NCBI GenBank assembly: GCA_036785375.1
Contig: JAWMAR010000316.1
Coordinates: forward strand, 372,001 to 436,000
Reading direction: 5' to 3'
DNA from: Leucoraja ocellata
Lineage: Eukaryota
DNA: 64,000 bases
A model generated the notes under the pieces. The model ran no database searches. It worked only from the letters and a program-made list of their open reading frames with translations, and had not been told where the DNA came from. A program made the position numbers and the translations under genes. Each line of letters starts with the position of its first letter. Position 1 is the first letter of the stretch. Shown piece after piece: positions 9,806-63,290 of the stretch.

Positions 9806-10043
9806 GGCCGGAGCTGCAATGAGCAACTCACCAGCCCTGCAAACACTCACCAGCCCCGCTCCCCATCCGCATCTGTCCCCGCCGCTGCTTCTGCTTCCAA
9901 CACCCGCGGCCCATGCAGTTGATATGAGTTTTGAAATTTTCGTTGATCACAGAATTTCTCACAACAGAGCTAGAGAAATTTGTGATCAGTGAGAATTTGG
10001 TGAAATGCGTGATTCTCACGCTCAATGCATGGTTGGCAGCCCT

Positions 10044-11082
10044 GCCTCTCTATCCCCCTCTCTCGCTCCCCCCTCTCTCTCTCACTTCCTCTCTCTCTCA
10101 CTCCCTCTCTCTCACTCCCTCTGACTCTCTCCCCCCCCTCTCCCCCTCTCTCCCCCCTCTTTCTCCCTCCCACCTCAATCTCCCTCTCTCTCTCCCCTCT
10201 ATCTCTTCCCCCCCTCTCTTCCACTCTTTCTCCTCTCACCCCCTCTCTCTCTCCCCTTCCCTCTCTCCCCTCTTTCTCTCCTCTCTCTCCATTCTCCCCC
10301 TCTCTCCCCTTCCCTCTCTCTTCTCTCTCCCCCTCTCTCTCTCCTCTCTTCCCCTCTCTCTCCACCTCCCCTTCCCCCTCCCCTCTCTCCCTCTTCCCCA
10401 TCTCTTCCTCCCACCTCACTCCCCCCCCCTCTCTCATCCCATCTCTCCTCTCTCTCCTCTCCTCCCCTCCTCTCTCCTCCTCTTTCTCTCTCCTCTCTTT
10501 CCCCTAACTCTCTCTCCCCTCTCTTTCCCCTAACCCTCTCCACCCATCTCCCCTCCCTATCTCTATCTCCCCTTCTCTTTCTTCTCTCTCCCCCTACCTC
10601 TCCCCCACTCTCTCTCTTTCTCCCTCCCTCTTTCTCCCTCCCTCTCTATCTCCCCCTCTCTCTCCCTCTCTCTCTCCACACACTCGCTCTCCTCTCTCTA
10701 TCCCCTCTCCTCCTATCTCTCCCCCTCTCTCTCTCCCCCTCACTCTCCCCCCACCTCACTCTCCCCCTTGCTCTCTCTCGCCTCTCTTTCTCCCGTTTCT
10801 ATCTCTTTGCCCCCCTCTCACTCTTTCCCCCTCTCTTCCTCTTCCCCCTCTCTCTTTTACCACCACTCTCTCTTCCCCCTCTCTCCCATTCTCTCTTACC
10901 CTCTCTCCTCCCTCTCACCCCCTCTCTACCCCCACTCTCTTCCCTCTCTCTCTTCCTCTTCCCCCCTCTCTCCCCCTCTCCCTCTTTCCCCTCACTCTCC
11001 CCCTCTCTCCTCCATCTCTCTCCCCTCTCCCAAATATTCCATCTGCCTAACCTTCCTGCCCTCTAACCCCTCTCCTCCCCCT
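10044..11082. repeat. ~1 kb polypyrimidine (CT-rich) low-complexity tract
   Basis: Almost only C/T on the + strand. Confidence 0.95.
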
Positions 11083-14793: not shown

Positions 14794-15164
14794 TAAATAT
14801 TTTTTTCTTCTTTTTTTCCCAAAAATAAATTTTACTTAGAATGAAAAAATATATATACACAAAATAAAAATAATGCAAAAATGCTTCATACATTCTCAGC
14901 AACTATATACTCAACAGCGTCATACTCAGTAGTGCTCGCACCTATCTTTAAACAAAACACCTTTAGCACTCATGTGGTTCCCTGGAATGACATCCTTCCC
15001 ATGTTTGAGGAGATAGACACAAAAAGCTGGAGTAACTCAGCGGGACAGGCAGCATCTCTGGAGAGAAGGAATGGGTGGCACTTCGGGTCGAGACCCTTCT
15101 TCAGAGGAGTTTCCCCACTGGATTCCAGAGAGGTCATATTCCAAAGTCCAGCAATGGTTCTTAC

Positions 15165-17070: not shown

Positions 17071-18450
17071 ACATAATTGTAACTCCCACAATCCACCTCA
17101 TATTGGTGTTAGCTCATTCCATTTTTAACTTGTTGCGGGGATTGAGTGTTGCTGGCTAGCCACCATCCCAAATGGAGGCCAAACAATGTAGACGGTGATT
17201 GAACCAACAATCCCCCCTCCAGCCAATGCCCATCACTCTGCTTGAATACATACCACCACTACAAACAATTCAAGTCTCAAGAGTGATTTAATTTCATTTG
17301 TCCTTGAATGAAACCGTGAAATTCTTACGTGCTGTAGCGGGTTTATAAACACTGTCCTTAATAGATATATAATAAACAAAAAGTTTGATAAATTTAAAAA
17401 AATATAATGCAAAAATAAAAGAGAGCCCAAATTCCCCAGTGCAACCCAGTTTGTTGTTAGATGAAACAGAGGACTCAGCAAGGAGCCTTAATCACACAGA
17501 GCAGTTTTCCTGATTGAACCAAGGCAGCAACAACTCAAACTCTAAGCAGAGCAATGCCTATTTTGAATGTCAAGACCACCCTGGTCATTCATTTATAGGC
17601 CCAAGGCTCCATTCAGGTGGAAGTGGAGCCAGGAGCAACACCTCATTGTTTGACATCCCTTGGGAAGCTGCTGATGAATTTAATTCCAAGCAAGAGGAAC
17701 TAATTTTATTTTAATGGGCCAGCAGGTAGATACTGCACAGGTTTCTGAAGATTTCTTCGAGAAGGGATCCCATTTTGCCAATGATCATGTACATCCCTGT
17801 CTTGTAAATAATTGCAGTCCTTTGATCTGTGGCAGTGCTGTAACATTTCAACCATCTCAACAAAACAAGGAAAGAACACCAAGTAGCAAAGTTTACCCAC
17901 TGATTAAATGGTTATTGACCCTGGTATGCTGTCTACACAGTGAATGATCAATGTCATTACCATCCTACAAAATGTGGTAGAATTGACCGACGAAAGGTTC
18001 TGTGATTCTGCTTTCTGGGCCATCTCGCTGATGAGCTTTGAGTACTTGGCAGAACAAAATGGGCAAGGCAAAGATAATATTTGGTTGATGGCCAGTGCGG
18101 ATTTGATGGGCTGAAGGGTGTATTTTACATGCAGTGTCTCTCCATGGATCTAACTGTACAGTGTTGTTTAGCCATACCAGGAGTGTTCAGAACAGCTATG
18201 GTCTCCTTATTTGTGAAAGGATATAATAGTAAGATTAAACGAGAAATTACCAGTTTGAAGTTTGATCTGTATTTTATGAGGAGTTACGATGAGGGATTAC
18301 GTGAAGAGCCCGCTCAGCACGCATGCGCGGCATACTTCAAAGTAGCGGTGTGGAATCACAGATAGACACAGTTATTGAAATAAACACAGTAAAGAAAAGG
18401 AGACATCAGTTATCAGTTTGACCCATATTATTGAGGGTGGGAGCGGAGGG

Positions 18451-18563
18451 CACGTAATCCCTCATCGTAACTCCTCATAAAATACAGATCAAACTTCAAA
18501 CTAGTAAGTTCTAGTTTAATCTTACTATTTTACTTCAGAGTCACGTGAGTGACTACGTGAAGA
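18451..18563 (-). repeat. Internal complementary region (ICR) of DIRS copy A
   Basis: Reads cttact-ATT-ttacttc on the + strand; complementary to 18225-18303 (3 mismatches) and to 26588-26621 (a few mismatches). Confidence 0.9.
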
Positions 18564-18890
18564 TTTTAAAGCTCTGTGATTTCAAACCGTGTAACAGTTA
18601 TTACTTCACTCACTGCCGAAGTCCTTGAGGGAGGAAGTGTGTTATCGTAATCAACCAATGAATCTGTTTGTAGAAAAACACAATGGTATTTTTTAACAAT
18701 AACAACAAATAAATTTTACTTCGGAGTCACGTGAGTGACTACGTGAAGAACCCACCCAGCGCGCAGGCGCGGCATTACGTCAGCAGTGCAACAGCGGCAG
18801 CAGCTGGAGCCAGGCTCTCCAGCTGCAGCATAAAGACAAGACCTCAGGTAAGTGCCTTTTTTGTGTTACAGAGTCGCTCCAAGGAGAATT

Positions 18891-20108
18891 ATGGCCTCTC
18901 GAAAGCGACCAGCCAGGAGGACTGCCTGCCCAACTCCACCCGAGGAGGGGTCCATAGCTGGGCGGCAGCCTCTCGCAGCGGAGGAGCCTTTTCAACGCTC
19001 CCGCTCACCCGACACCGAGCCGCCCCCAGTGCTGCAGATATCAACGCCCCGCACAGGGAGGAAGGCGACTCATAAGACCGACCGGCCGGTGTCCTCCGAT
19101 GAATCGGAGGAACGGGAACACTCTCCCCCACCGAAAAGGGGAGACGCTCGGATCAGCTGCATGAGGCAGCTCCTAGAGCGAATGATTAACGAGGAGATGC
19201 AGGCTAGGCATCTCCCAGGAGGACGGGCTTTGGCCTCCTCCTCTCCACACCCTTCTGTACCCTCTATGTTCGAGGGCAGTAAGGGAGGCCAGGACTGGGC
19301 TGGCCTATCCCAAGGGCAGGCGGAGGATACCATCAGCATGCTGGGCGTGCTAGAAGAAGAGCTACTGGGTGTAGTGGGCCGATACGCAGCGCCCCCAACG
19401 ACTGGGATGGTATTGCCACCCAGAATGGCGGCCAGCATAAACAGGCTGTCCAACAACCCGCTGCAGGACAAGGCCGTCCAGCAGGCCCTTGACACATACA
19501 CAGCGCCAGAGAATTGCGAGGCGCTGAGGGTCAAAACGGTCAATGGGCAGATCTGGAACCAGCTGGGGCAGCAGATCAGGGCTCAGGAAGTCAAGATGCA
19601 GCGAGTCCTGAAGCTCCACTCAGCAGCCGTCACCGCCTTTGCTCGGTCCGTTGGGAATGAAGACCTGACCATACCCCAGCAGGATGCCCTCGCACTGATG
19701 TGCAGCACCACCTATGAGCTAAATAGCCTACGGCGGGACAACATCAGGCCTGCCCTCAACCCAACATATGCAGGCCTCTGCAAAGCTCCAGCGCCCGAAC
19801 GAGAGGCGCTGCTATTTGGTGCAGATCTGGCCAAAGGGCTGAAGGAGTTGGAAGAGGCGGCCAAACCAGTAGGCCTCATGAGGGCAGGGCCAGGACCGAG
19901 CAGGGTGAAGACACCCAGTTGGCAGCACGCCTCGGCAGCCACCAGCAGGTACCGAGCTGGTGAAAGCCTGGTGACCGCCTCCCACTACCCCCAGAGCTCT
20001 TTTTTAGAGCGGGGCCCAGGGCGGAGCCGTGGGAAGATGCGCCGCCCCACCGCAGCACCAACACGGACAACCTTGGGCCAAACCCACCGAAAACGACCCC
20101 ACAAGTAA
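18891..20108 (+). CDS. DIRS copy B ORF1 (gag-like), intact; first ATG at 18891
   Basis: Open frame (track ORF 18852-20108) immediately upstream of the RT ORF; homologous to copy A ORF1. Confidence 0.85.
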   Translation: MASRKRPARRTACPTPPEEGSIAGRQPLAAEEPFQRSRSPDTEPPPVLQISTPRTGRKATHKTDRPVSSDESEEREHSPPPKRGDARISCMRQLLERMINEEMQARHLPGGRALASSSPHPSVPSMFEGSKGGQDWAGLSQGQAEDTISMLGVLEEELLGVVGRYAAPPTTGMVLPPRMAASINRLSNNPLQDKAVQQALDTYTAPENCEALRVKTVNGQIWNQLGQQIRAQEVKMQRVLKLHSAAVTAFARSVGNEDLTIPQQDALALMCSTTYELNSLRRDNIRPALNPTYAGLCKAPAPEREALLFGADLAKGLKELEEAAKPVGLMRAGPGPSRVKTPSWQHASAATSRYRAGESLVTASHYPQSSFLERGPGRSRGKMRRPTAAPTRTTLGQTHRKRPHK

Positions 20109-20110
20109 AC

Positions 20111-21031
20111 ATGGAGGTAGGTGGGTCTGGTTCCTGTCAACATACACAGACAAAGGGTGTAGTATTAACAGGAGGACGTTTGAGGTTCTTCAAGCATGTT
20201 TGGTGCTCCCTTACTAACAATAAGTTTATACTCAACAGTATTAGTGGATACAAAATTGAGTTCAAACCAGGCATAGAACCGCCAGTTCAGCACATGCCCC
20301 AAAGGGTATTCCTTCCCTCAGCAGTTGAGAAGGTAGAAGGACAAGCTGAACTTAATCGGCTCGTGGCTAAAGGCATCATAGAAATGACCACACACGAGCC
20401 GCAAGAATTTGTATCAAATATTTTTCTCAAATCCAAAAAAGATGGTGGATGTCGCATTATTATTGATCTGACGTCACTTAATCAGTCTGTTGAGTATCAA
20501 CATTTCAAAATGGAGACATTTGTCACTGCCAGACAACTGATCTCCAAGGGATACTACATGGCAAGCATAGATATCAAAGATGCTTACTATTTGGTACCCA
20601 TTCATAAAGATTATTATAAATATCTGAAATTTATCTGGATGGGCCAGCTATGGCAGTACCGAGCCTTGCCCAATGGGTTAACGACGGCTCCCAGACTATT
20701 TACGAAAATTCTTAAAGTGGCCATGAAGAAATTGAGAGAACTAAAACATTTAGTCGTGGCCTATCTGGACGATGTTCTCATATTAGGGAGAACAAGGGAA
20801 CAAGCTGTCGCAGGAGTTTTAGCCACTAAACAACTCCTTGAAACTTTGGGAGCCTCTGGCATTCTGGTCGTACCCGACTGGCCTACCCAACCATGGTTCC
20901 CAATGTTCCACGACATGGTGGTAGAGACACCTATGGTCCTTCATAACCACCCCCAATTATTGACTCACCCGGTAACTGGCATTAGCCATCCATGCCACCA
21001 AAAATTGAACCTCCTGGTTTCCAGATTTTGA
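20111..21031 (+). CDS. DIRS copy B reverse transcriptase fused in frame to the MT C-terminus (RNase H deleted)
   Basis: IDIKDAY, LPNGLTTAPRLFTK, YLDD; junction ETLG|ASGILVVPDWPTQPWF at ~20851 where copy A has ~1 kb more. Confidence 0.9.
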   Translation: MEVGGSGSCQHTQTKGVVLTGGRLRFFKHVWCSLTNNKFILNSISGYKIEFKPGIEPPVQHMPQRVFLPSAVEKVEGQAELNRLVAKGIIEMTTHEPQEFVSNIFLKSKKDGGCRIIIDLTSLNQSVEYQHFKMETFVTARQLISKGYYMASIDIKDAYYLVPIHKDYYKYLKFIWMGQLWQYRALPNGLTTAPRLFTKILKVAMKKLRELKHLVVAYLDDVLILGRTREQAVAGVLATKQLLETLGASGILVVPDWPTQPWFPMFHDMVVETPMVLHNHPQLLTHPVTGISHPCHQKLNLLVSRF

Positions 21032-22002
21032 ACAGACCTTACCGGGGATTGGGGTTATCAGAGAGAACAATCACCACCATGTCGGCATCCCTGCGAGTTT
21101 CCACCAAAAAGCAGTACCTGACCTACATCAGGAAATGGGAACAGTACTGTCTGGAAGCAGGGACATCCTACAAGACGGCTTCGATCTCGGATGTGCTGGA
21201 GTTCCTGGCCCACCTGCACCACGACCTCAAGATGAGCTACAGTGCCATCAATACAGCTCGGAGCGCCCTGTCCGCATACCTCATGCCCATAGGACAGCAT
21301 AGTGTGGGATCCCACCCTCTGGTCATCAAACTCCTTAAGGGGATCTTTAACACCAAACCCCCTACATCTAGATACACCCATATGTGGGATGTGAGTGTAG
21401 TTCTAACACACCTTCGAGGTTGGCCTCCGGTGGGATCCCTGAGCCTGGAACAGTCCACTTATAAGACCCTTATGCTCATGGCGCTTGTCTCAGCTCAGAG
21501 GGTTCAGTCGCTGCATCAGCTAAATCTGAACTACATGGTGACCACCCCAGATACCATTACTTTCACCATGCCGGGGTTGGTAAAACAAAGTAGACCAGGT
21601 ACATCCAACTCCCCGTTGATCTTCCGGGCATACCCTCCAGAACCTAGGCTGTGTGTGGTGACCCACCTTCATCATTATTTAGACACTACCCAAACGCTTA
21701 GAGGGAGAGAGAAAGCCTTATGGGTTAGCCACAAAAAGCCTTTTGGACGGGTTACCAGCCAGACTTTATCCAGATGGTTGAAACAGGTCCTCAACATGGC
21801 AGGGATTAACACAGATGTTTTTAAATCCCATTCAACCAGGGCAGCGTCCACCTCAGCGGCGGATAGGATGCAGGTTCCCCTAGACCACATCCTCAGAGCA
21901 GCGGGATGGTCAAGGGAATCGACATTCCAAAGATTCTACAGAAAACCGCTGATGGAACAGGACGTCTTTGCGGAAAGCATTTTAGAAACCGCAAAGTTAT
22001 GA
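20992..22002 (+). CDS. DIRS copy B tyrosine recombinase (phage-integrase family), intact
   Basis: Catalytic residues present: R (SAQR), HxxR (HSTR), W (AGWS), Y (FQRFY); N-terminal integrase-like region (VLEFLAHL..SYSAINTARSALS). Confidence 0.92.
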   Translation: MPPKIEPPGFQILNRPYRGLGLSERTITTMSASLRVSTKKQYLTYIRKWEQYCLEAGTSYKTASISDVLEFLAHLHHDLKMSYSAINTARSALSAYLMPIGQHSVGSHPLVIKLLKGIFNTKPPTSRYTHMWDVSVVLTHLRGWPPVGSLSLEQSTYKTLMLMALVSAQRVQSLHQLNLNYMVTTPDTITFTMPGLVKQSRPGTSNSPLIFRAYPPEPRLCVVTHLHHYLDTTQTLRGREKALWVSHKKPFGRVTSQTLSRWLKQVLNMAGINTDVFKSHSTRAASTSAADRMQVPLDHILRAAGWSRESTFQRFYRKPLMEQDVFAESILETAKL

Positions 22003-22160
22003 TTTAAAGCCCAGGGGAGCTATTTTTTGTTATAGTTAATAAACATTTCTTTTATAACTAAACAAACTTGTTGGTCTTTAGATACCACTTCCTCCCTCGA
22101 TGATCTTTCGGCAGTGAGTGATATAACTGTTACACGGTTTGAAATCACAGACCTTTGAAG

Positions 22161-22273
22161 TCTTCACGTAGTCACTCACGTGACTCCGAAGTAAAATAGT
22201 AAGATTAAACGAGTACTTACCAGTACGAAGTTTGATCTGTATTTTATGAGGAGTTACGATGAGGGATTACGTG
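22161..22273 (+). repeat. Internal complementary region (ICR) of DIRS copy B
   Basis: Reverse complement of the 5' end (18716-18749) joined through AAT to the reverse complement of the 3' end (22418-22493). Confidence 0.95.
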
Positions 22274-22518
22274 CCCTCCGCTCCCACCCTCATTATATAG
22301 ATCAAATTCGGACTAATGTCTCGTTGGTCTTTACTATCTTTACTTCAACTAGTGTCTATCTGTGATTCCACACCGCTGCTTGGAAGTATGCCGCGCCTGC
22401 GCGCTGGGTGGGTTCTTCACGTAATCCCTCATCGTAACTCCTCATAAAATACAGATCAAACTTCGTACTGGTAAGTACTCGTTTAATCTTACTATTAAAT
22501 TGCTCCCCTGGGCTTAAA

Positions 22519-23430
22519 TTAAATATTTGCAGTCTGTAATTTTTTTTCTGCAAATAAAGCAGGTTTTGCCAACGGCTTATTATATAAAGTTCTGTGCTTC
22601 TTTCCCCCGACCATCCTGCTGTAGCCAGGATGTGGTCTATAGGCACGTCCATTCTTTTGACCGTCGACATGGATGCTGCCCTGGTGGAGTGAGATTTGTA
22701 CATGTTAGTGCTTATCCCAGCAGCTTTTAGCACCTGCTTGAGCCATCTCGAAATGGTTTGGCTCGTCACCCGACCATAAGGTTTTTTATGACTAACCCAT
22801 AAGGCTTTTTCACCCCCTCGAATATTTTTGGTTGTGTCTATGTAGGACAGTAGGTGGGTCATGGCACATAATCGTGGTTCTGGCGGGTAAGCCCGGAATT
22901 CCACGACTGGATTAGGTGTTCCTGGTCTGCTCTGTTTGATCAGTCCCTGGATAATAAAAGAGATCTGGTCTGGAGCTGTGATCATGTTGTCCAGTCGCAA
23001 TAGATGTAGTGACTGGACCCTCTGTGCAGATTCAAGTGCCATCAACATGAGTGTTTTGAGCGTAGATTGTTCCAGGTTGAGGGATCTGGCTGGTGGCCAT
23101 CCCCTGAGGTATGTCAGGACCACACTGACATCCCATATATGGGTGTACCTTGGTCTAGGGGGGTTAGAGTTGTAAATACCCTTCATTAGTTTGACCACCA
23201 GCGGGTGGGACCCCATGGCCTGTTGTCCTGGAACTTGTTTTAAATAGACAGACAGGGCACCTCTAGCTGTGTTGATGGCACTGTAGCTGAGTCCTTCATC
23301 GTGGTGAAGGTTCGCTAGGAATTCCAGTACGTTGGTAACTGTAGCGGTTGAGTAGGTGGTCCCTGCATCCAAGCAGTACTTCTCCCATTTTTTGATGCTG
23401 GACAAGTGCTGTTTTCTTGTGGATGTTCGG
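22519..23430 (-). pseudogene. DIRS copy A tyrosine recombinase, N-terminal deletion and frameshift before the catalytic Tyr
   Basis: SAQRVQSL, KSHSTRAAS, AGWS motifs; closely homologous to copy B YR. Confidence 0.88.
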
Positions 23431-25239
23431 AGGGATGTCGTGGAGTAATGGGAACCATGGCTGTGTAGGCCGGTCGGGTACTATCAAAATACCTGAAGCA
23501 GAGTCCATTTGTATTTTGCGTAGTACCCAGCTGATGCGGCAGAAGGGAGGAAATGCATAGAAGAAGAAATTTCCCCATGTCCAGCGCGAACGCTGCTGCT
23601 TCAGGGTCTGGTTCCCAAGCGACATACATAGGTACCTGGTGATTTAGCCTTGATGCAAATAGGTCAATATCTGGCGTGCCATGTTGCTTAATAATTTTTG
23701 CAAACACTTTGGGGTTTAACATCCATTCGGTGTTGTCATTAAATTTGCGTGACCTGGTGTCTACCACTGTATTTAGCTTACCTGGCAGGTAAGTTGCTGA
23801 TAGCCAAATATGTCTTACGATACACCATTGCCAAATTGCGTTGACCAATTTGTCGCATGATATCGATTTTATGCCGCCCATATGGTTAATGTAGGCCACC
23901 ACCGTAGTATTGTCTATTTGTAACCGAACATGCAAGTGATACATATTGGATGCATATGCTTTTAAACCATAAAAGGCACCCAACATCTCTAGATAGTTAA
24001 TGCCCAGTGTAAGTAGTAACGATGACTCTGGGTTAGTCCATCTACCACCTGTGCTGGATATGGAGTTAGTCGCTCCCCAGCCTTGAGCACTGGCATTTGT
24101 TTGGATAACTAAAGTAAGGTTAATGATGATGATAGGGCTGAAACTATGCCAAATGTTTTCTGCCCACCACTGTAGTTCTGATATTGCTTCAGTGGGTAAT
24201 TTCATGATACGATCATAATGACCTGCATGTCGTTTTAGTGCCTGTACCTTTGCTCTTTGTAAGTTTTGATAGTGCAAAGGTCCAAATTGTGTAGCCGGAA
24301 ATGCTGCTACCATTTCCCCAATTACTCTTGCTACTTGTCCAATAGTTGGTCGCTCGTTGACCGTTAAATTGTTGCATGATTGTGCCAATTCAGTTGTTTG
24401 GTCTTTTGGCAAAGTTACAGACATGTGGGCTGAGTTAATTGTGAAGCCCAAGTAGTCCATGGTTGTGGATGGCTTCAACTTAGATTTATCTGGATGTAAG
24501 ACAAATCCCAAGGTTTCGAACAACTGTTTGGTAGCTGACAGTTGATATAGCCAATTCCATGGTCTTGCCTACTATTAAGATATCATCAAGATATGTCATG
24601 ACAATATGTTTTTGTCTTCTTAATATTGCCAGTGCTGTTTTTAGTATCTTGGTGAATAATCTTGGGGCTGATGTTAACCCATTGGGTAATGCTTTAAACT
24701 GCCAAAGCTTCCCCATCCAGGTAAATTTCGGGTATCTGCGATGATCCTTGTGAATGGGTACTGAATAGTAAGCATCTTTGAGGTCAATGCTTGCCATGAA
24801 GTATCCTTTGGAAATCAGTTGTTTGGCAGTAACAAACATTTCCATTTTGAAATGTACATATTTAACAACCATATTTAGTGAAGTTAAGTCAATGATGATG
24901 CGACACCCACCATCTTTTTTAGTTTGAGTGAATATATTTGACACAAATTCCAAGGGTTCATGTTTTGTTTTTTCAATGATACCCTTAGTGATTAGTCTCA
25001 CCAGTTCAGCTTGTCCCTCTCGTTTCTCTTTAACTGAGAGGGAAAAGACCCTTTGGGGTGAATGTTGGTGGCAATTTTTCTAGTATAAATTGTATTCTGT
25101 ATCCACTAATGCTATTGAGTATATACTTGTCACTCATGATAGACTCCCATGCTTCCTTAAACAGGTGTAATCTCACCCCTGTTAGTATTGCGCCCCTACT
25201 TTATATATGCTGGTAGGAACCAGACCCACCTACCTCCAT
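23430..25239 (-). pseudogene. DIRS copy A RT / RNase H / N6-adenine methyltransferase-like ORF, disrupted
   Basis: IDLKDAY, LPNGL..APRLFTK, YLDD (RT); QTNASAQGWGA, INYLEM, IDNTTVVAYINHMGG (RNase H); PDIDLFAS and YAFPPF (MT motifs); early TAA after 12 codons plus frameshifts. Confidence 0.9.
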
Positions 25240-25241
25240 GG

Positions 25242-26425
25242 TTATGGGTGTTTCTTCTGTCTCTTCCCAGACCAGCGAGTCTTGCGCGTTGTCTGACGTG
25301 GCGGTGATGTTTGGGGGTGGCGCATTTTCCATGGGGTCCGCTCTGGGCCTTGGTCTAAAAAATACTTTAGGTGGTGATATGCGGACCCCAAGCTTTCACC
25401 AGTCCCATAGGGTAGACGTTGACTGGTGGACGCGATGGGGTGCTGCCGCTTAGGTATTGTTGTTTTGGGTTTGCACGTCCCGGGGCCTGCCCTCATGAGG
25501 CCGAACGTTTTAGGGGCCTCTTCCACATCCTTGACTTTTTTAGTGAGGTCTTTGCCAAAGAGCAGTGTGTTTGGCTCAGTGGTTGGGATTTTGCACAACC
25601 TGGCGAATTTTGGATTGAGGGCAGGTCTTATAATTTCTCTATTGTCCATAGAACGAGCAAATGATGTGATGGCTGACGTCAGGAGCCTGAGGATCTGCTG
25701 CAGTTTCATCTCCTGATTTTGAATATTTCTCCCAACGTGCCCCCAGATTTGGCTGTTGACTGCCGGCACTTTGAGTAATTCACAATTTTCAGGAGCTGTG
25801 TATAATTCTAAGACCTCATTGACCACCTGCTCCTGTAGGGGCCTGTTGGAGAGGTGGTTAATGCCGGCCGTTAGTTAGGCTCTAATGGCCTTCCTGCACG
25901 TGGGGCTGCCACGTAGCGGTCCACCACACCCAGCAGCTCTTCCTGTTCCTGCACCCCTGGCATACTCCCGACTTCTTCAGCCAGCATCCCCTCTTCCTGA
26001 CCAGCCCAGTCCTGGTCGCCAAAGCTGCCCTCGGGTGAGGAGGAAGCAATGGGCAGTGCACAAGGCACTGTGGAGGGAGTGCCTGAACTCCCCCTGCGAG
26101 ACTGCCCCTCATGCAGCGAGTCTCGCTGGATCACCTGCTCCAGGAGCCGCTCCATGCGGCTCAGGCGGCTGTCTCTTCCCCGAACGGGTGGTGAGACGTC
26201 CCTGTCCGACGAGTCGGAAACCACCGGCCGGATGCTCTTCATGGTGGCTTTCCAACCAGTCCGCTGCTCAGGTGCTAGCGGGACTGGGCTCGGCCCGGTG
26301 TCGGGGATGGCGGAGCGCTGGGTAAGCGGTCCTACCGCCTCCTGCCCCCCACCGATGGAACGCTCCTCCGTCGGAGTCGAGCGGGGGACAGATTTCTTCG
26401 AGAGCCTTTTCTTGATCGAACTCAT
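25242..26425 (-). pseudogene. DIRS copy A ORF1 (gag-like), frameshifted near 25875 with a ~25-codon deletion
   Basis: ORFs 25871-26425 and 25242-25826 align in pieces with copy B gag (EELLGVVxRY, YTAPENCE, IRPALNP, GLMRAGPG). Confidence 0.85.
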
Positions 26426-28084
26426 GTCTGAAAAACAAATCAGAAGGCTCTCCTTGCAAAAGAAAAGCCGACCTCAGAGTAACTTACCTGACGGTCCGTC
26501 TTTTAAACTGTAGCGGGAGCGCCTGACTCCCGCTGCGGCCGCTGTTGCACTGCTGAATGCAATGCCGCGCATGCGTGCTGAGCGGGCTCTTCACGTAGTC
26601 ACTCACGTGGCTCCGATGTAAATTAGAGCATTAGAGGCAGTCTTGGAGCCACTTATTAGATTAATTTCGGGGAGGGTTATTTGAGCATGAAAAGCTAAAA
26701 ATAGATTGACCTATATTTATTCAAGTTTGGGAGAATGAGGGGAGATCTAATTGAAACACTTAATTACTAAGCGACATAACAGGATAACAGATGTTGAGAT
26801 GTTCCACGAGTGGAAGAGCGAGGAAAGAGGAGACAGAGATACAAGATAAATTGGTAATTTAGCACTGAGATACGAAGAATTTCCCTCCTGCAAAGAGTGA
26901 AGGATCTCTGGATTTCATTAGGCTGGAAGCGATCTGAAAGCTAGTTTACTAAGGATATTTTGGGAAGGTAGATAAACATTTGAATCATCAAGGAACTGAG
27001 GGCAATGATGTACCGGCACAGATGAAGAATTGGGGTCTGGGGCAGATCAGCCATGGTCACATTGATTGTTGGGGCAGGTGTGAGGGGCAGATGGCCTAGT
27101 CCTACTCTGATTTTGCTCTTTTCCTGTTTATGCCATGATGTGGCCCCCTCAATGGAGACATATAGAGAATAAATGAAATGTAGGCAAATGAAAGTAAAGA
27201 TATATCAGGGCTGTAATCAATGCCATTTGTGACATTTACATTTTATTCCAGCGTGGAAAAATACCTCTCTAGGTATAATTCTGGGAGATTTCATTGGAGA
27301 TGCTGTTACAGTCAGGGTAAGAGTTCCTCTGAGAAACAATAACCGCAGCGTAATTGGATTCAATAGACAGTGAAAGAGAGGGAAAACAGTGAAAAGTATT
27401 TGGCTGGGGAATGAAAAATCAATGATTAAGAACTAAATTTGTTCAGATAAGCTGGAAAAGAGCCAAAATCAAAAAGAAGTAAAATACACAGTGTTCAACA
27501 AGAAAAAGGAGGGGGAGGGAATGGAGGACTTAATCCCACATGAGCTAAAGATAATGCTCTGGGAATTAATGGAGAGATTAAAATGACATCTCATTAAAGC
27601 AATGTGACTGATCTGAGTAGTGGTATGAAGCAAATTTTATAGAATATAACAAAGTGAAAAACATCAGTTGAGCAGGGGAATGAAGAATAAATAGCAAGTT
27701 ATAAGAAAGGAAATAATAAAGGATTTTATAGATGCACAACAAGTCCATAAAGAAACTGAGCACCAGACATAGTCCATTAGTGATACCTAACTAGCTCAGG
27801 CTGAAGCTGATAGAAAATTTGGATTAGAAATCCATCAGCACCAGTGTTTGGATGTTTAACCTTAATTACAGTAAATGTATCCCTACCACCTTTTTCAAAG
27901 ACTGTTATAAACTGCAACATTTATTAGTATGTTGAAATATGGCGTTACTGTGTTCTCCCACCCTACATTGGGAATGCCAGGCACCACTAGTCAAATTATT
28001 GTTGCTACCTGAACCTAGAGTACATTAAACTGCCAATAAAGACACTGGCTCACACAAGAAACCATCAGAGTGTGTTTTAGTTTT

Positions 28085-28410: not shown

Positions 28411-30325
28411 TCAATTGATCAATTGATGGCTATCGCAGTGATTACCAAGGACAGGTGAGTGCTCCTGAGTTCATTGACAGGAACCTTAAGAGGCTGCTCT
28501 ACCACACCACGTACAGAAAGAATGTCCCCCATTCAAAGTGACCATCCTTGTGGACGGGCACATAAACCTGGCAGGAAGGCTCCAAGGATATGAATGCAAC
28601 CTGGATATACATGAATTTTAAAGAAATCCACAATGTAAGGAAGTGTCCTTGTGTGACATGAAATCTATTTGAAAGGTGTATAGAGCATCAATGGCCCCAG
28701 TAACACACCGGAGATCCCCAAACCATATAGTATGGCAGATGCCATCCACGTGGCTAAAATGTCCAACTGTGGCAAAATGAAAGTGAGTGCAGCCCCAATC
28801 CATGGGGGGCTGGGAGCATTATTTTTGTGCACGATGAGCAGAGTTTTATTCAGACAAACGGACAGAGGAAGATAGTTTTAACTGCAGTATACAGGGTGTG
28901 CAATTGTAGAATAAAAATAAGACACAAGGAACTGCAGACGCTGGAATTTCTGTAGAACACAAAGTGTTGTTGTAACTCAGCAGTTCAGGCAGCAGGTCAG
29001 GCAGTGTCTCTGAGATGCTGCCTGACTCGCTAAGTTACTCGAGCACTTTGGGTTCTATTGTGTAGAATAACCTGTGAGCATGCAACATGTGCATTCAATG
29101 CACATTTACAGTGACTGAGAAGGGCACAAATTGCTGGTGTAACTCAGCGGGTCAGGCAGCATTCCTGGAGAACATGGCTACGTGATGTTTTGGGTCGGAA
29201 CCCTTCTACAGTGACAGACTCTTTAAATATTGTTCAAATTTAGTCTTCAGTGTTAGTAAAAAATGGTTGTTCTGTGAATTAATATTACCCATGTTTAAAA
29301 GGTGGTGAAAGTCTGGATGAAGACAAACTTTGGAGATTGACTATTGCTGATGTCATTTGGGGAGTTCGATGCTAGTACAGCATTGATTAGGCACAAGAAA
29401 ATCTTGCATCAAAATCATATGGTATTAATAACTAACATTAATGCATCCAGAAATGGGTGCATAATTGCTCAACAATTTGCAAGTAATTTTTGTCTGTTTG
29501 ATGATGCCTAATTTTTCAGTTGCACAGGTGAATTCATTTGCCTTTGGTGTCTTAATAGACTTCATATACAACAGTGCAAAAATTAAGAACGTAAGGCTAA
29601 TGTTGAAATTAGCCAAGATAACAAAAAATATATTTAATGTCGTATTTCATGATCAAAATTTATCAGGCCAAAGCAAGTACAGTGTTGTAGTCACCAAGAC
29701 AATTGTTATGAAAATATAACCTAGTAATTCTTCAAAGGAACCAAAGTAGCTATTTGAAATAAATGAAAACACAAGTGCGTAGGGGAGTGAAATGTACTTC
29801 ACAATGCTAGTGGTGCAGTAAGTGATCTCTTTTGCACAATAAAGTGTCGTATTTGAATGACAGAACTGTATATTCTTGATAGTGAATCTTTGGTTATATT
29901 ATGGAATCTGCTCTTTACTAAATATCTTGACAAACATATGTAGAACTGCGTGAAAGTTACTTTTTTCATTCTCATTTTAGATCACAGACCTACTGCTCGG
30001 TGTCTGGGGACAAGGCAATCAGGGGAATGTGTTGTCAGCCTTTGCAAGCAGCAAAGATTGCCCAGGGACAGAGAGGAAAGGCTGGAAACACCATCCATGT
30101 TAGTAATTATCTCTTGGCATCAAAGGCAGGTATCTCTCCCAAAAGCTGCAGTCACTGCTCTACTTACCGCCCAGGATAAACACCAGCATAATTGCTGGAG
30201 GATGATGCAGCAGAACTGTCCACAGTACAGAGGATATTAAAGTGCAAGCAACAAATTAAATATTTTCTAATTGTGGCTAATTTAATAAGCAAAAAGGAAA
30301 GTCCTTTCAGAGATATTCAGCTCAC

Positions 30326-58110: not shown

Positions 58111-58430
58111 GTATGAAGGAACTGCAGATGCTGGTTTAAACCGAAGATAGACACAAAAAGCTGGAGTAACAGCGGGGCAGGCAGCATTTCTGGAAAGAAG
58201 CATAAAAAGCTGGAGTAACTCAGCGGGACAGGCACCATCTCCGCAAAAAGTTGGAGTAACTAAGCGGTACTTTTTTGCATACCTTTCATTCATTGTTCTT
58301 TATCTCTCCACATCACCATCTATATCTCTTGTTTCCCTTATTCCTAACCAGTCTGAAGAAGGGTCTCGAACCGAAACATAACCCATTCCTTCTCTCCAGA
58401 GATGCTGCCTGTCCCGCTGAGTTACCCCAG
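58111..58430. repeat. Inverted pair of Penelope-type terminal repeats with a hammerhead-like core at 58353-58380
   Basis: gctggagtaactcagcgggacaggc ... gcctgtcccgctgagttaccccag. Confidence 0.7.
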
Positions 58431-60359: not shown

Positions 60360-63290
60360 CCTCTCCTTACTGAGATTCCCACCTGCTTAAAAAGGGAATC
60401 AATACTACTGGTGCCCAAGAAGAGTAAGGTGATGTACCTCAATGACCACCAACCTGTGGCACTAATGTCAATGGCGATGAAGTGCTTTGAGAGTTTGGTT
60501 ATGGTGCACATCAACTCTTACCTCAGCAAGAACCTGGACCCACTATAATTTGTCTATCACCACAGCAGTGGGGGATGCAATCTCACTGGCTCCCCACCAG
60601 ACCACTTAGACAATAAGAACACATATGTCAGACTGCTGTTCATTGACTACAACTTGGTTTCAACACCATCTACCCTTTCAAACGTCATCAAGCTCAGGGA
60701 ACTGGGTCTCTTTCCGGTGCATCTCATTTGCTACTGACCCTCAACTTCCTCATCAACAGACTGCAATCGGTATGAATTAGCAACACTTCCTCCTTGACAA
60801 CCTTCAAAGCTCAATCCCTGCTATACTCACTATACCCATCACTGTGTAGTCAGACACAATTCCATCTTTAAATTAGCCTAAGATACCACAGTTACTACAA
60901 TTGTTGGACGAATTATAGGTAAGGAAATAGTCAGAGCATAGGAGGGAGATCGATTATCTGATTGAATGGTGCCAGAACAATAATCTTGCTCTCTATATCA
61001 GTAAAACCAAGGAGATTGTTGAAGGAAGAGAAGGACTGAGAATCCACAAAGCTGTCTTCATCAACAGTTCAGTGGTGCAGAGACAACAACTTTTAAGTTT
61101 TTGGGTATGCATATCTCTGAAGATCTGTCATGGCCCCAGCCCGTCATTGCAATCAATAACAAAAAACATAGAAACATAGACATAGAAACATAGAAATTAG
61201 GTGCAGGAGTAGGCCATTCGGCCCTTCGAGCCTGCACCGCCATTCAATATGATCATGGCTGATCATCCAACTCAGTATCCCGTACCTGCCTTCTCTCCAT
61301 ACCCCCTGATCCCCTTAGCCACAAGGGCCACATCTAACTCCCTCTTAAATATAGCCAATGAACTGGCCTCAACTACCCTCTGTGGCAGAGAGTTCCAGAG
61401 ATTCACCACTCTCTGCGAGAAAAAAGTTCTTCTCATCTCGGTTTTAAAGGATTTCCCCTTTATCCTTAAGCTGTGACCCCTTGTCCTGGACTTCCCCAAC
61501 ATCGGAAACAATCTTCCTGCATCTAGCCTGTCCAACCCCTTAAGAATTTTGTAAGTTTCTATAAGATCCCCTCTCAATCTTCTAAATTCTAGAGAGTATA
61601 AACCAAGTCTATCCAGTCTTTCTTCATAAGACAGTCCTGACATCCCAGGAATCAGTCTGGTGAACCGTCTCTGCACTCCCTCTATGGCAATAATGTCCTT
61701 CCTCAGATTTGGAGACCAAAACTGTACGCAATACTCCAGGTGTGGTCTCACCAAGACCCTGTACAACTGCAGTAGAACCTCTCTGCTCCTATACTCAAAT
61801 CCTTTTGCAATGAAAGCTAACATACCATTCGCTTTCTTTACTGCCTGTTGCACCTGCATGCCTACCTTCAATGACTGGTGTACCATGACACCCAGGTCTC
61901 GCTGCATCTCCCCTTTCCCAATCGGCCACCATTTAGATAATAGTCTGCTTTCCTGTTTTTGCCACCAAAATGGATAACCTCACATTTATCCACATTATAC
62001 TGCATCTGCCAAACATTTGCCCACCCACCCAGCCTATCCAAGTCACCCTGCAGTCTCCTAGCATCCTCCTCACAGCTAACACTGCCCCCCAGCTTAGTGT
62101 CATCCGCAAACTTGGAGATATTGCCTTCAATTCCCTCATCCAGATCATTAATATATATTGTAAATAGCTGGGGTCCCAGTGCTGAGCCTTGGGGTACCCC
62201 ACTAGTCACTGCCTGCCATTGTGAAAAGGACCCGTTTACTCCTACTCTTTGCTTCCTGTTTGCCAGCCAGTTCTCTATCCACATCAATACTGAACCCCCA
62301 ATGCCTTGTGCTTTAAGTTTGTATACTAATCTCTTATGTGGGACCTTGTCGAAAGCCTTCTGGAAGTCCAGATACACCACATCCACTGGTTCTCCCCTAT
62401 CCACGCTACTAGTTACATCCTCGAAAAATTCTATAAGATTCGTCAGACATGATTTACCTTTCGTAAATCCATGCTGACTTTGTCCAATGATTTCACCACT
62501 TTCCAAATGTGCTGCTATCCCATCTTTAATAACTGACTCTAGCAGTTTCCCCACTACCGATGTTAGACTAACTGGTCTGTAAACCAGATAAAACATCGAT
62601 GCCTCCACTTTTATAGAAGATTGAGGAGATTCAGTATCTTGATGAATACTCTCTCCTTAACTTCTAAAGGTGTACATTAGAGCACAAATTGACTAGTTGC
62701 ATAACAGCATGATTCAGCAACAAATGCCCAGAAGCAAAGGAGATTGCAAGAAGTGGTGGATATGGTCCATCATGGGTATTGACCCTCACCCCCAGCATCA
62801 TAAGACAGCCAGCATCATCACGGACCCTCACCAGCCTGGCCACGCTCTCATTTCACTCCTGCCATCAGGGAGATGGTATAGGAGTTTCAACCCGAAATTC
62901 ACCTATTTCTTTTCTCCAGAGATGTTTGTGACCTGCTGAGTTACTCCAGCAGTTTGTGTCTATCTATAGGAGTTTGAAAACTGTGACCTCCAAGTTCTTC
63001 CCAACAATCATCAGGCTCTTGAACACTACAAACAACAATTAAACTACGAAGAAAGACACAAAATGCTGGAGTAACTCAGCGGGACAGGCAGCTAAACTAC
63101 AAACTCTCTTGGCTACACTTGGGATTTTGTGCTTTTGTTTTGCGCTGATATTATTTTTAAATTTTTTGCACTTTTGTTTGTTGTGTTAGTTATGAGTACT
63201 GTATTTATAGACCTGCTATGCTGCTGCAAGTAAAAATTCATTGTTCTGTTTCCGATACATATGACAATTTAACATTCTTGACTCGACATT
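60360..63290 (+). mobile_element. Old Rex1/Babar-like LINE fragment interrupted by a young CR1 (61166-62580)
   Basis: LND(H)QPVAL..MKCFE and LFIDY RT remnants; resumes after 62590 with HQPGHALISLLPSGR. Confidence 0.7.
61166..62580 (-). mobile_element. Young 5'-truncated CR1 LINE (RT C-terminal part + 3' UTR)
   Basis: YRPVSLTS, QHGF, YLDFQKAFDKV, GVPQGS, FADD; only one frameshift; (TTTCTATG)n tail. Confidence 0.95.

Follow-up and report, generated by a model that had tools for sequence, protein, structure and literature searches.

A DIRS retrotransposon inserted antisense into an older DIRS copy of a sister subfamily in Leucoraja ocellata

Results

In the 64-kb window of Leucoraja ocellata DNA that we analyzed, one DIRS retrotransposon lies antisense inside another: copy B (+, 18713-22496) interrupts copy A (-, 26624-18225), splitting its body into 26624-22497 and 18712-18225. 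The evidence supports a reading in which B is the younger DIRS of a sister subfamily and was integrated via the usual tyrosine recombinase (YR) route into the spacer between A's YR gene and its ICR. The nesting itself is real, with hardly any room for doubt; the whole account, an ordinary nested retrotransposon insertion including an opportunistic choice of site, we hold at a probability of roughly 0.55. The features are as follows.

17959..18224, +, CR1-type LINE fragment, 5' part; matches the CR1 copy at 61944-61693 up to the A boundary
26625..27132, +, CR1-type LINE fragment, 3' part; picks up on that copy where the left flank ends, offset by about 5 nt over 100
18225..18333, -, A right terminus, made up of the right ITR and an extension; ATT core at its end, 18225-18227; 36/36 to the A left ITR and 76/79 to the A ICR
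18451..18563, -, A internal complementary region (ICR); circle-junction core 18527-18529
18564..18712, -, A YR-ICR spacer, distal part; 115/137 aligned positions identical to the B spacer
22497..22518, -, A YR-ICR spacer, proximal 22 nt; 20/22 identical to the stretch following the B YR stop
22519..23441, -, A tyrosine recombinase; N-terminus deleted, frameshift ahead of the catalytic Tyr
23434..25239, -, A pol (RT, RNase H, MT-like), by tblastn with P0121; in-frame stop, three frameshifts, C-terminus lost
25242..26425, -, A gag-like ORF1; frameshift near 25875
26562..26624, -, A left ITR; terminal core one base off the ICR junction (either a lost T or a mismatch at the middle base)
18713..22496, +, copy B whole, 3784 nt; ATT at 18713-18715 and 22494-22496; termini identical to the ICR
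18713..18775, +, B left ITR
18891..20108, +, B gag-like ORF1, called gag by position; open, with 405 aa counted from the first Met
20111..21031, +, B pol; N-terminal part of RT joined in frame to the final 59 residues; RVT_1 E 2e-14
20986..22002, +, B tyrosine recombinase; open; motifs R, HSTR, W and Y present; PF00589 above cut-off
22161..22273, +, B ICR; core 22195-22197
22388..22496, +, B right terminus

Both copies have the anatomy of DIRS1-type elements, as the sequence-only reading had proposed: termini, inverted terminal repeats (ITRs, 36/36 in each copy) and ICRs are found for both. In each, a tyrosine recombinase takes the place of a DDE integrase (PF00589 above cut-off), RT with an RVT_1 match lies upstream of YR in the same orientation, and the ICR is complementary to both termini, which overlap at a 3-nt junction. 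An ORF1 in the place expected for gag has no Pfam family match in either copy; that of B is about 45% identical to the pieces of A ORF1. Ngaro and PAT were rejected as assignments, as they would need split direct repeats and the repeats here are inverted, with an ICR. The order ITR-gag-RT-YR-ICR-ITR that was described for each copy stands, but not complete coding, given that B pol is deleted and the three ORFs of A are broken. Likewise, B was correctly placed between the YR stop (22519) and ICR edge (18563) of A, 22 nt and 149 nt away, respectively; its orientation, which had been called head-to-head, is by strand and gene order antisense, such that the two YR genes converge tail to tail.

The same gene order and ATT ends are found in LgDIRS1/3 and AcaDIRS1/2 (PMC3266345, Table 3), and a whole-element length of about 4.8 kb is in line with the ATT-ended DIRS1 elements of that study. 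The conserved ITR is 36 nt here and 31-36 nt in those elements; the ICR halves are 37 and 79 here compared to about 39-45 and 86-88 in that paper. The copies described here are from a cartilaginous fish; in contrast, the teleost and frog elements in Table 3 have GTT or TTT ends and conserved ITRs of 102-148 nt. The nearest named YR, Leucoraja erinacea LOC129708389 (P0025), groups with A and B in a single clade (SH-aLRT 100 in a quick tree); at 50% identity to the B YR, it represents another family.

The junctions show how the two copies are joined. B starts and ends at the ICR-defined circle junction, with ATT on each side, and the parts of A's spacer on the two sides of B read as one when both are aligned to B. 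The ITRs of A match each other at 42 of 45 positions, as do those of B, compared to only 37 of 45 for the cross pairs A5'/B3' and B5'/A3'; because ITRs pair better with their own partners than across copies, the nested topology is fixed. The 3' non-coding blocks of A and B form an inverted pair with 85% identity over 495 columns, similar ends through which two separate copies might have been rearranged or misassembled. However, the junctions lie on the ICR-defined ATT, outside these shared blocks, the ITR variants pair as nesting predicts, the spacer of A and the CR1 flanks each continue across the inserts, and there are 0 undetermined bases (N) in the window. An assembly artefact is a very unlikely source of the nesting, and together with rearrangement it retains only the slimmest chance.

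The flanks of A are collinear halves of one old LINE, which we take to be a CR1 from its motif pattern; the copy at 61944-61693 carries Pfam RVT_1. No target duplication was seen where A entered it. According to PMC3266345, DIRS1 elements end most often in ATT and are not expected to duplicate their target.

The coding regions of both copies are damaged. In A, gag, pol and YR are all broken, and a frameshift splits the catalytic YR motifs between frames, while those of B lie in one frame. The RVT_3 match to A's RNase H region is weak (E 0.17), and the MT-like part corresponds to a stretch of P0128 that scores for Dam, itself below cut-off. A PDB sequence search raised PvuII as an identity for the RNase H region; its 6 weak matches were treated as noise. 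In B, pol carries a deletion of 1014 nt between 20851 and 20852. Taking as reference P0121, an intact 644-aa relative that is 97% identical and has the RNase H/MT region, B pol matches residues 1-247 and 586-644; residues 248-585 (338 codons) are gone, including the end of RT, RNase H and most of MT. The B YR is 96% identical to P0001. No mobilized family with B's deletion was found: among 181 proteins with both motifs, the one that is short-spaced, P0359, is only 37% identical and was rejected as a member of the B family. B may have lost RNase H and the RT end once it was integrated, or an intact member of its family may have copied it in trans.

As to age, the termini of B match its ICR perfectly (37/37 at the 5' end and 79/79 at the 3' end), whereas those of A match at 31/34 and 76/79, giving 0 and 6 differences, respectively, in 110 positions outside the cores (Fisher p = 0.029). 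Since B has fewer such differences, it is the younger copy, in agreement with the initial description of a young copy inside an older one. The repeats of A had probably diverged before B arrived.

The claim that the two belong to different subfamilies is borne out by their coding regions, with amino-acid identities of 71.8% in RT and 69.3% in YR and synonymous divergence (pS about 0.71) near saturation. Their terminal and ICR sequences had been described as near-identical, which is too strong: the non-coding ends are 84-95% identical, the ICRs at 107 of 113 positions. The YR-ICR spacer is 84% identical between the subfamilies while synonymous sites are near saturation; because it is conserved in this way, it is not obviously neutral and looks to be under constraint. 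RNA structure found no backing as the cause of conservation in spacer and linker, with two-sided changes in 1/20 and 0/21 pairs in a comparison of two sequences, and Rfam gave 0 matches over 64 kb.

We considered what determined the site. A holds 174 ATT sites, 142 in ORFs and 12 in the spacer, so that under an ATT-only rule the chance of a spacer site is about 7% and that of missing the ORFs about 0.18. That the insertion fell among so few spacer sites and missed the ORFs counts against an opportunistic account, as does its distance of only 183 nt from A's own junction core in the ICR. A is not enriched in ATT (37.7 per kb, compared to 51.0 in the rest of the window). Resemblance of the target to the circle junction was rejected: the arms match at 5 of 30 positions, no better than random, 93% of the 3104 ATT sites in the window match equally well or better, and ATT alone is in common.

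The 5-mer AAATT flanks B at either end. Such a pair would not arise from a plain YR crossover, which also counts against the opportunistic account. The same type of pattern occurs at 8 of 2835 outside ATT sites, any 4-8-mer at 65 of 2835, and in A+T-rich context the figure is 23 of 158.

The position of B, sparing A's ORFs and ICR in a spacer with so few ATT sites, is what would be seen if the family targeted the YR-ICR spacer as a dedicated safe site that keeps the host copy functional. The sequence-only reading had suggested such a choice, but this is not supported. With lesions in every one of A's ORFs, no gain from sparing them is evident; the host copy was not left functional if, as we infer, its lesions predate B. 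B's own spacer lacks the stretch carrying the core at that position, the conserved spacer looks constrained, and double-stranded RNA would be the expected outcome of a 3.8-kb antisense relative within the transcript. We consider a dedicated safe site distinctly improbable. Most likely, the site was picked by a short core and local A+T content.

A general leaning of the family toward other DIRS copies, with no fixed site, is a possible alternative. In such homing, for example, YR bound to the resident ICR or termini would tether an incoming circle, which would take a nearby ATT. The locus is itself a DIRS in a DIRS, and the similarity of the two ICRs and the proximity to A's ICR core also fit. 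On the other hand, this is n = 1, picked for being nested, and of the two visible insertion events only one is in a DIRS, A itself sitting in a CR1. In the remaining 55.6 kb of this one window, blastn and tblastn found no further DIRS copy and thus no cluster; given this, the chance of any one copy hitting a relative is roughly 1%, which counts against the opportunistic account. Random insertion would nevertheless yield 3-600 nests per genome, 0.2-42 of them within the spacer, assuming a DIRS share of 0.3-3%, 3-kb copies and a genome of 2.2-4 Gb, ranges guided by batoid figures. Among 388 relative proteins, a test of very little power, there was no credible antisense or terminal DIRS junction; one 17-aa match (E 0.003) was weak and rejected. 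The read-through peptide of B's 3' end (lengths 51-165 aa) gave no candidate for other junctions in protein collections, and three little-skate supplementary files gave 0 DIRS matches.

In the available text of PMC5633606, Dictyostelium DIRS-1 is described as favouring existing copies, "without apparent sequence preference", and zebrafish DIRS1 is said to do likewise in that of PMC5941688, where a Dictyostelium paper and a review are given as sources. Reported self-insertion in the superfamily raises the prior for homing and so counts against opportunistic choice. We regard homing as possible, and as less probable than the opportunistic account.

Discussion

Integration of a circle by YR is the established model for DIRS, and the junction anatomy expected of it is observed here. 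We propose that A integrated into a CR1 LINE that had decayed beforehand, as its flanks show, and then would have decayed in all three ORFs, where the lesions are plain and their placement before B is an interpretation. A circular cDNA of B may then have recombined in antisense, its ATT junction core crossing with an ATT in A's A+T-rich spacer. The missing RNase H and RT end of B would reflect one of the two origins given above.

As far as the accessible portions of PMC5633606 and PMC7192593 go, the likeness to Dictyostelium DIRS-1 lies in a DIRS within a DIRS, a YR-type junction and no special target sequence. There, a preference is shown, with centromeric clusters within one family; here, unlike in Dictyostelium, a single insertion involves two subfamilies whose proteins are about 70% alike, and the surrounding DNA is rich in CR1 and shows no cluster. 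Vertebrate DIRS1 elements are also said to enter existing copies (zebrafish "homing", notothenioid hot spots); what the consulted text of PMC5941688 and PMC6387122 offers is a cited statement and FISH-level clustering, with no spacer site described.

This nest adds a case to known behaviour, self-insertion being in print, within the text available from these sources, for Dictyostelium and, second-hand, for zebrafish. The locus is a clean example of YR-type integration, with two dated events, one within the other, and readable junctions, and it documents two unnamed DIRS1 subfamilies. As a single locus, it leaves the homing question where it stood. Its importance would grow if homing near the ICR emerged from a genome-wide count, since the specificity of DIRS recombinases had, judging by the available text of PMC7192593, not been studied by experiment up to that paper, and the vertebrate homing claim is second-hand. 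One further idea, which we think improbable, is that DIRS subfamilies of cartilaginous fish, whose synonymous sites are saturated, retain almost the same cis-acting ends, such that the recombinase of one homes on the ICR region of another and places copies antisense near the resident circle junction, dead copies acting as traps. If this were true, read-through of the traps would give antisense or hairpin RNA directed at the active subfamily, and there would be a defined, countable target for a step of DIRS integration that has had no prior experimental study.

Nested DIRS1-like elements

Self-comparison of positions 17500-27500 revealed a pair of related elements in opposite orientation, one enclosed by the other:

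18713-22496, + strand: copy B, the younger element, internally deleted
26624 to 22497, then 18712 down to 18225, - strand: copy A, the older host element, interrupted by copy B

Both carry ORF1, reverse transcriptase (RT) and tyrosine recombinase (YR) in that order, followed by the internal complementary region (ICR) and the right terminus; each RT matches Pfam RVT_1 (E about 2-3e-14) and each tyrosine recombinase scores above the cut-off for PF00589. The self-comparison, ORF order and domains bear out the sequence-only reading of a nested DIRS pair, DIRS1-like in type, at the coordinates it gave. Its head-to-head orientation is wrong: copy B runs antisense to copy A, with convergent YR genes. 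Copy B lies 22 nt past the YR stop of copy A, 149 nt from the edge of the copy A ICR and 183 nt from the ICR core.

Junctions of the two insertions

The 5' end of copy B matches its own ICR at 37/37 positions and the 3' end at 79/79, and both terminate at the ATT where the ICR halves overlap. This fits the DIRS1 route described in PMC3266345, in which a 3-bp circle junction, most commonly ATT, recombines with the same genomic sequence without target duplication. The conserved inverted terminal repeat (ITR) is identical within copy A (36/36) and within copy B (36/36). Over 45 positions, within-copy ITR pairs have 42 matches and cross 5'/3' pairs have 37, which assigns the far 3' end (18225) to the 5' end at 26624. 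The two pieces of the copy A spacer (YR stop to ICR) align consecutively to copy B's own spacer. Likewise, the flanks of copy A align next to each other on a single LINE copy (61.2-61.9 kb; E 2e-5 and 9e-8, with an offset of about 5 nt), so copy A is a single insertion into an old LINE, presumably CR1. Given these termini, ITR pairings and collinear pieces, and a window without any N, an artefact, or a rearrangement instead of an insertion, is very improbable, and we read the nesting as genuine. The 5' core of copy A (26620-26624) is one base off its ICR junction; several elements in Table 3 of PMC3266345 have two ends differing at the middle base.

The window contains other repeats. The 3' end of a LINE, at 1774-2073, shares 97% identity with 61180-61479; an inverted copy lies beside it (1767-1958 and 2152-2343; 192 nt, 97%), and 1767-2343 looks like a young LINE carrying either an inversion or a fold-back. 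About 1 kb at 10000-11050 is C/T-only simple sequence (GC skew -0.94, AT skew -0.72). Dispersed copies of one short repeat family, at least a dozen per strand (e.g. 1657-1757, 15004-15104, 29111-29211 and 58138-58245), resemble a shark/ray SINE.

Target site of copy B

The order of events can be read directly, as can the junctions and lesions: copy A inserted into the old LINE, and copy B later into copy A. In the established model, ends are templated on the ICR, the intermediate is circular and YR crosses over at a trinucleotide; PMC7192593 considers this model largely untested and describes YR specificity as unstudied. We favour a reading, at a probability of roughly 55%, in which YR would have recombined the copy B circle with an ATT chosen opportunistically in A+T-rich DNA. 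Beyond the ATT, the target matches the circle-junction arms at 5/30 positions, and 93% of 3104 ATT sites match them equally well or better.

Copy A holds 174 ATT sites including the used one. ORFs contain 142 of these and the spacer 12, which gives a chance of about 0.18 of missing the ORFs and about 0.07 of hitting the spacer; when stricter A+T-rich motifs are counted, 6-20% of them fall in the spacer (small counts). The density of ATT-type motifs per kb is lower in copy A than in the rest of the window. As a sign of site choice, the position of copy B is suggestive at most. The proposal that the spacer is a dedicated safe site, sparing host ORFs and ICR, is unsupported and improbable: conservation of the spacer between the subfamilies and the decay of copy A both speak against a site that preserves a working host, and in copy B's own spacer the stretch that carries the target core is missing at that position.

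AAATT lies on each side of copy B (18711-18715 and 22497-22501), mimicking a 5-nt target duplication. Such a duplication is not expected from DIRS elements. A flanking 5-mer repeat occurs at 8/2835 outside ATT sites, and any 4-8-mer at 65/2835, or at 23/158 in A+T-rich context. The pair could be either a slippage repeat that pre-existed in copy A or a short duplication created at insertion; copy A's own junction has no comparable duplication.

Possible homing to related copies

General homing to related DIRS copies would also place copy B here. For a single copy, nesting has a probability of ~1% when DIRS elements account for about 1% of the genome, and the remaining 55.6 kb of the window yielded no other DIRS; this speaks for homing. 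Against this, the window was flagged because of the nesting, and random insertion predicts 3-600 nests in a genome, with 0.2-42 falling in the spacer (a rough estimate with assumed inputs of a 0.3-3% DIRS share and 3-kb copies). Batoid genomes measure 2.2-4.0 Gb, of which Gypsy plus DIRS1 occupy 2.5-3.7% (bioRxiv 10.64898/2026.10.27.761883). The two visible insertions are also split, copy B in a DIRS and copy A in a LINE, and two indirect, low-power protein-level probes found no further DIRS junctions. We consider homing possible but doubtful.

The idea of self-insertion by vertebrate DIRS is not new. PMC5941688 describes many zebrafish DIRS1 elements in pre-existing copies as homing, citing a Dictyostelium paper and a review; in Dictyostelium, DIRS-1 favours existing copies 'without apparent sequence preference' (PMC5633606). 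DIRS1 forms FISH hot spots in notothenioids (PMC6387122). The portions consulted of a Xenopus preprint (10.1101/2021.08.05.455354) and of PMC2685390 contain nothing on nesting. Our search, which did not include the primary Goodwin and Poulter papers and so leaves absence unproven, found no published description of the YR-ICR spacer as a target, or of nested copies in cartilaginous fish.

Age and coding capacity

Under the accepted model DIRS termini are templated on the ICR, so mismatch between the two dates a copy. Copy B has 0/110 differences and copy A 6/110 (Fisher p = 0.029), with intervals that touch (95% upper bound 2.7% for copy B; 2.0-11.5% for copy A). ORF1 and YR are open in copy B, with the YR catalytic motifs in one frame. 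Its pol corresponds to residues 1-247 and 586-644 of P0121, a full-length 644-aa relative (RT part 97% identical). The in-frame loss of 338 codons removes the RT end, RNase H and the greater part of the methyltransferase-like region, so the 'young' copy is non-autonomous. No second protein of the copy B family with this deletion was found among 181 proteins, of which one is short-spaced but unrelated (weak evidence). Copy A is disrupted in every ORF: ORF1 is frameshifted, pol contains three frameshifts and a stop, about 170 nt are deleted where pol ends and YR begins, and YR is frameshifted ahead of the catalytic tyrosine.

Subfamilies and their conserved ends

The copies are 71.8% identical in RT protein (177 codons) and 69.3% in YR (280 codons); pS stands at about 0.71 and dN/dS at about 0.09. 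These values agree with the earlier assignment to different subfamilies, long separated and both once under selection. A quick maximum-likelihood tree built from 34 YR rows (A, B, the best 30 matches and 2 further named) places A and B as sisters (SH-aLRT 98) within a clade that includes a Leucoraja erinacea protein (SH-aLRT 100); marine invertebrates account for the remaining named rows. Together with the look of the window's repeats, this placement suggests a cartilaginous-fish host. The copy B termini (ATT, 36-nt conserved ITR, ICR 37+79) resemble mollusc DIRS1 in the PMC3266345 table, unlike the teleost and frog elements listed there.

Between the copies, identity across the non-coding ends, spacer and linker among them, is 84-95% (18713-18853 and 22000-22496 vs 26482-26624, 22500-22521 and 18225-18711): 55/63 in the left ITR, 115/137 in the distal spacer, 107/113 in the ICR, 97/112 in the linker and 100/109 in the right terminus. 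All are far more similar than synonymous sites, themselves near saturation; LTR retrotransposons have the reverse pattern. Identity climbs at the YR stop and drops past a common splice-donor-like motif, a profile that points to selection on the ends as cis-signals. RNA folds of the conserved parts, from these two sequences only, gave no covariation support.

The donor-like motif lies directly before ORF1 (18847|18848, +, in copy B; about 26488, -, in copy A), and a T-run plus AG lies shortly upstream of pol (20007, +; about 25356, -). Together they could allow ORF1 to be removed by splicing to express pol; in PMC4495291, a DIRS1-derived sequence is only inferred to carry a splice acceptor. The 3' blocks of A and B form an inverted pair (495 columns, 85% identical), over which a copy A read-through transcript could fold back; any transcript reading through from the left ITR of copy A would run antisense to the B family. 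Exchange of ends between the A and B lineages may be another cause of their similarity. The conserved ends suggest that the two subfamilies share cis-signals, and cross-mobilisation between them is possible.
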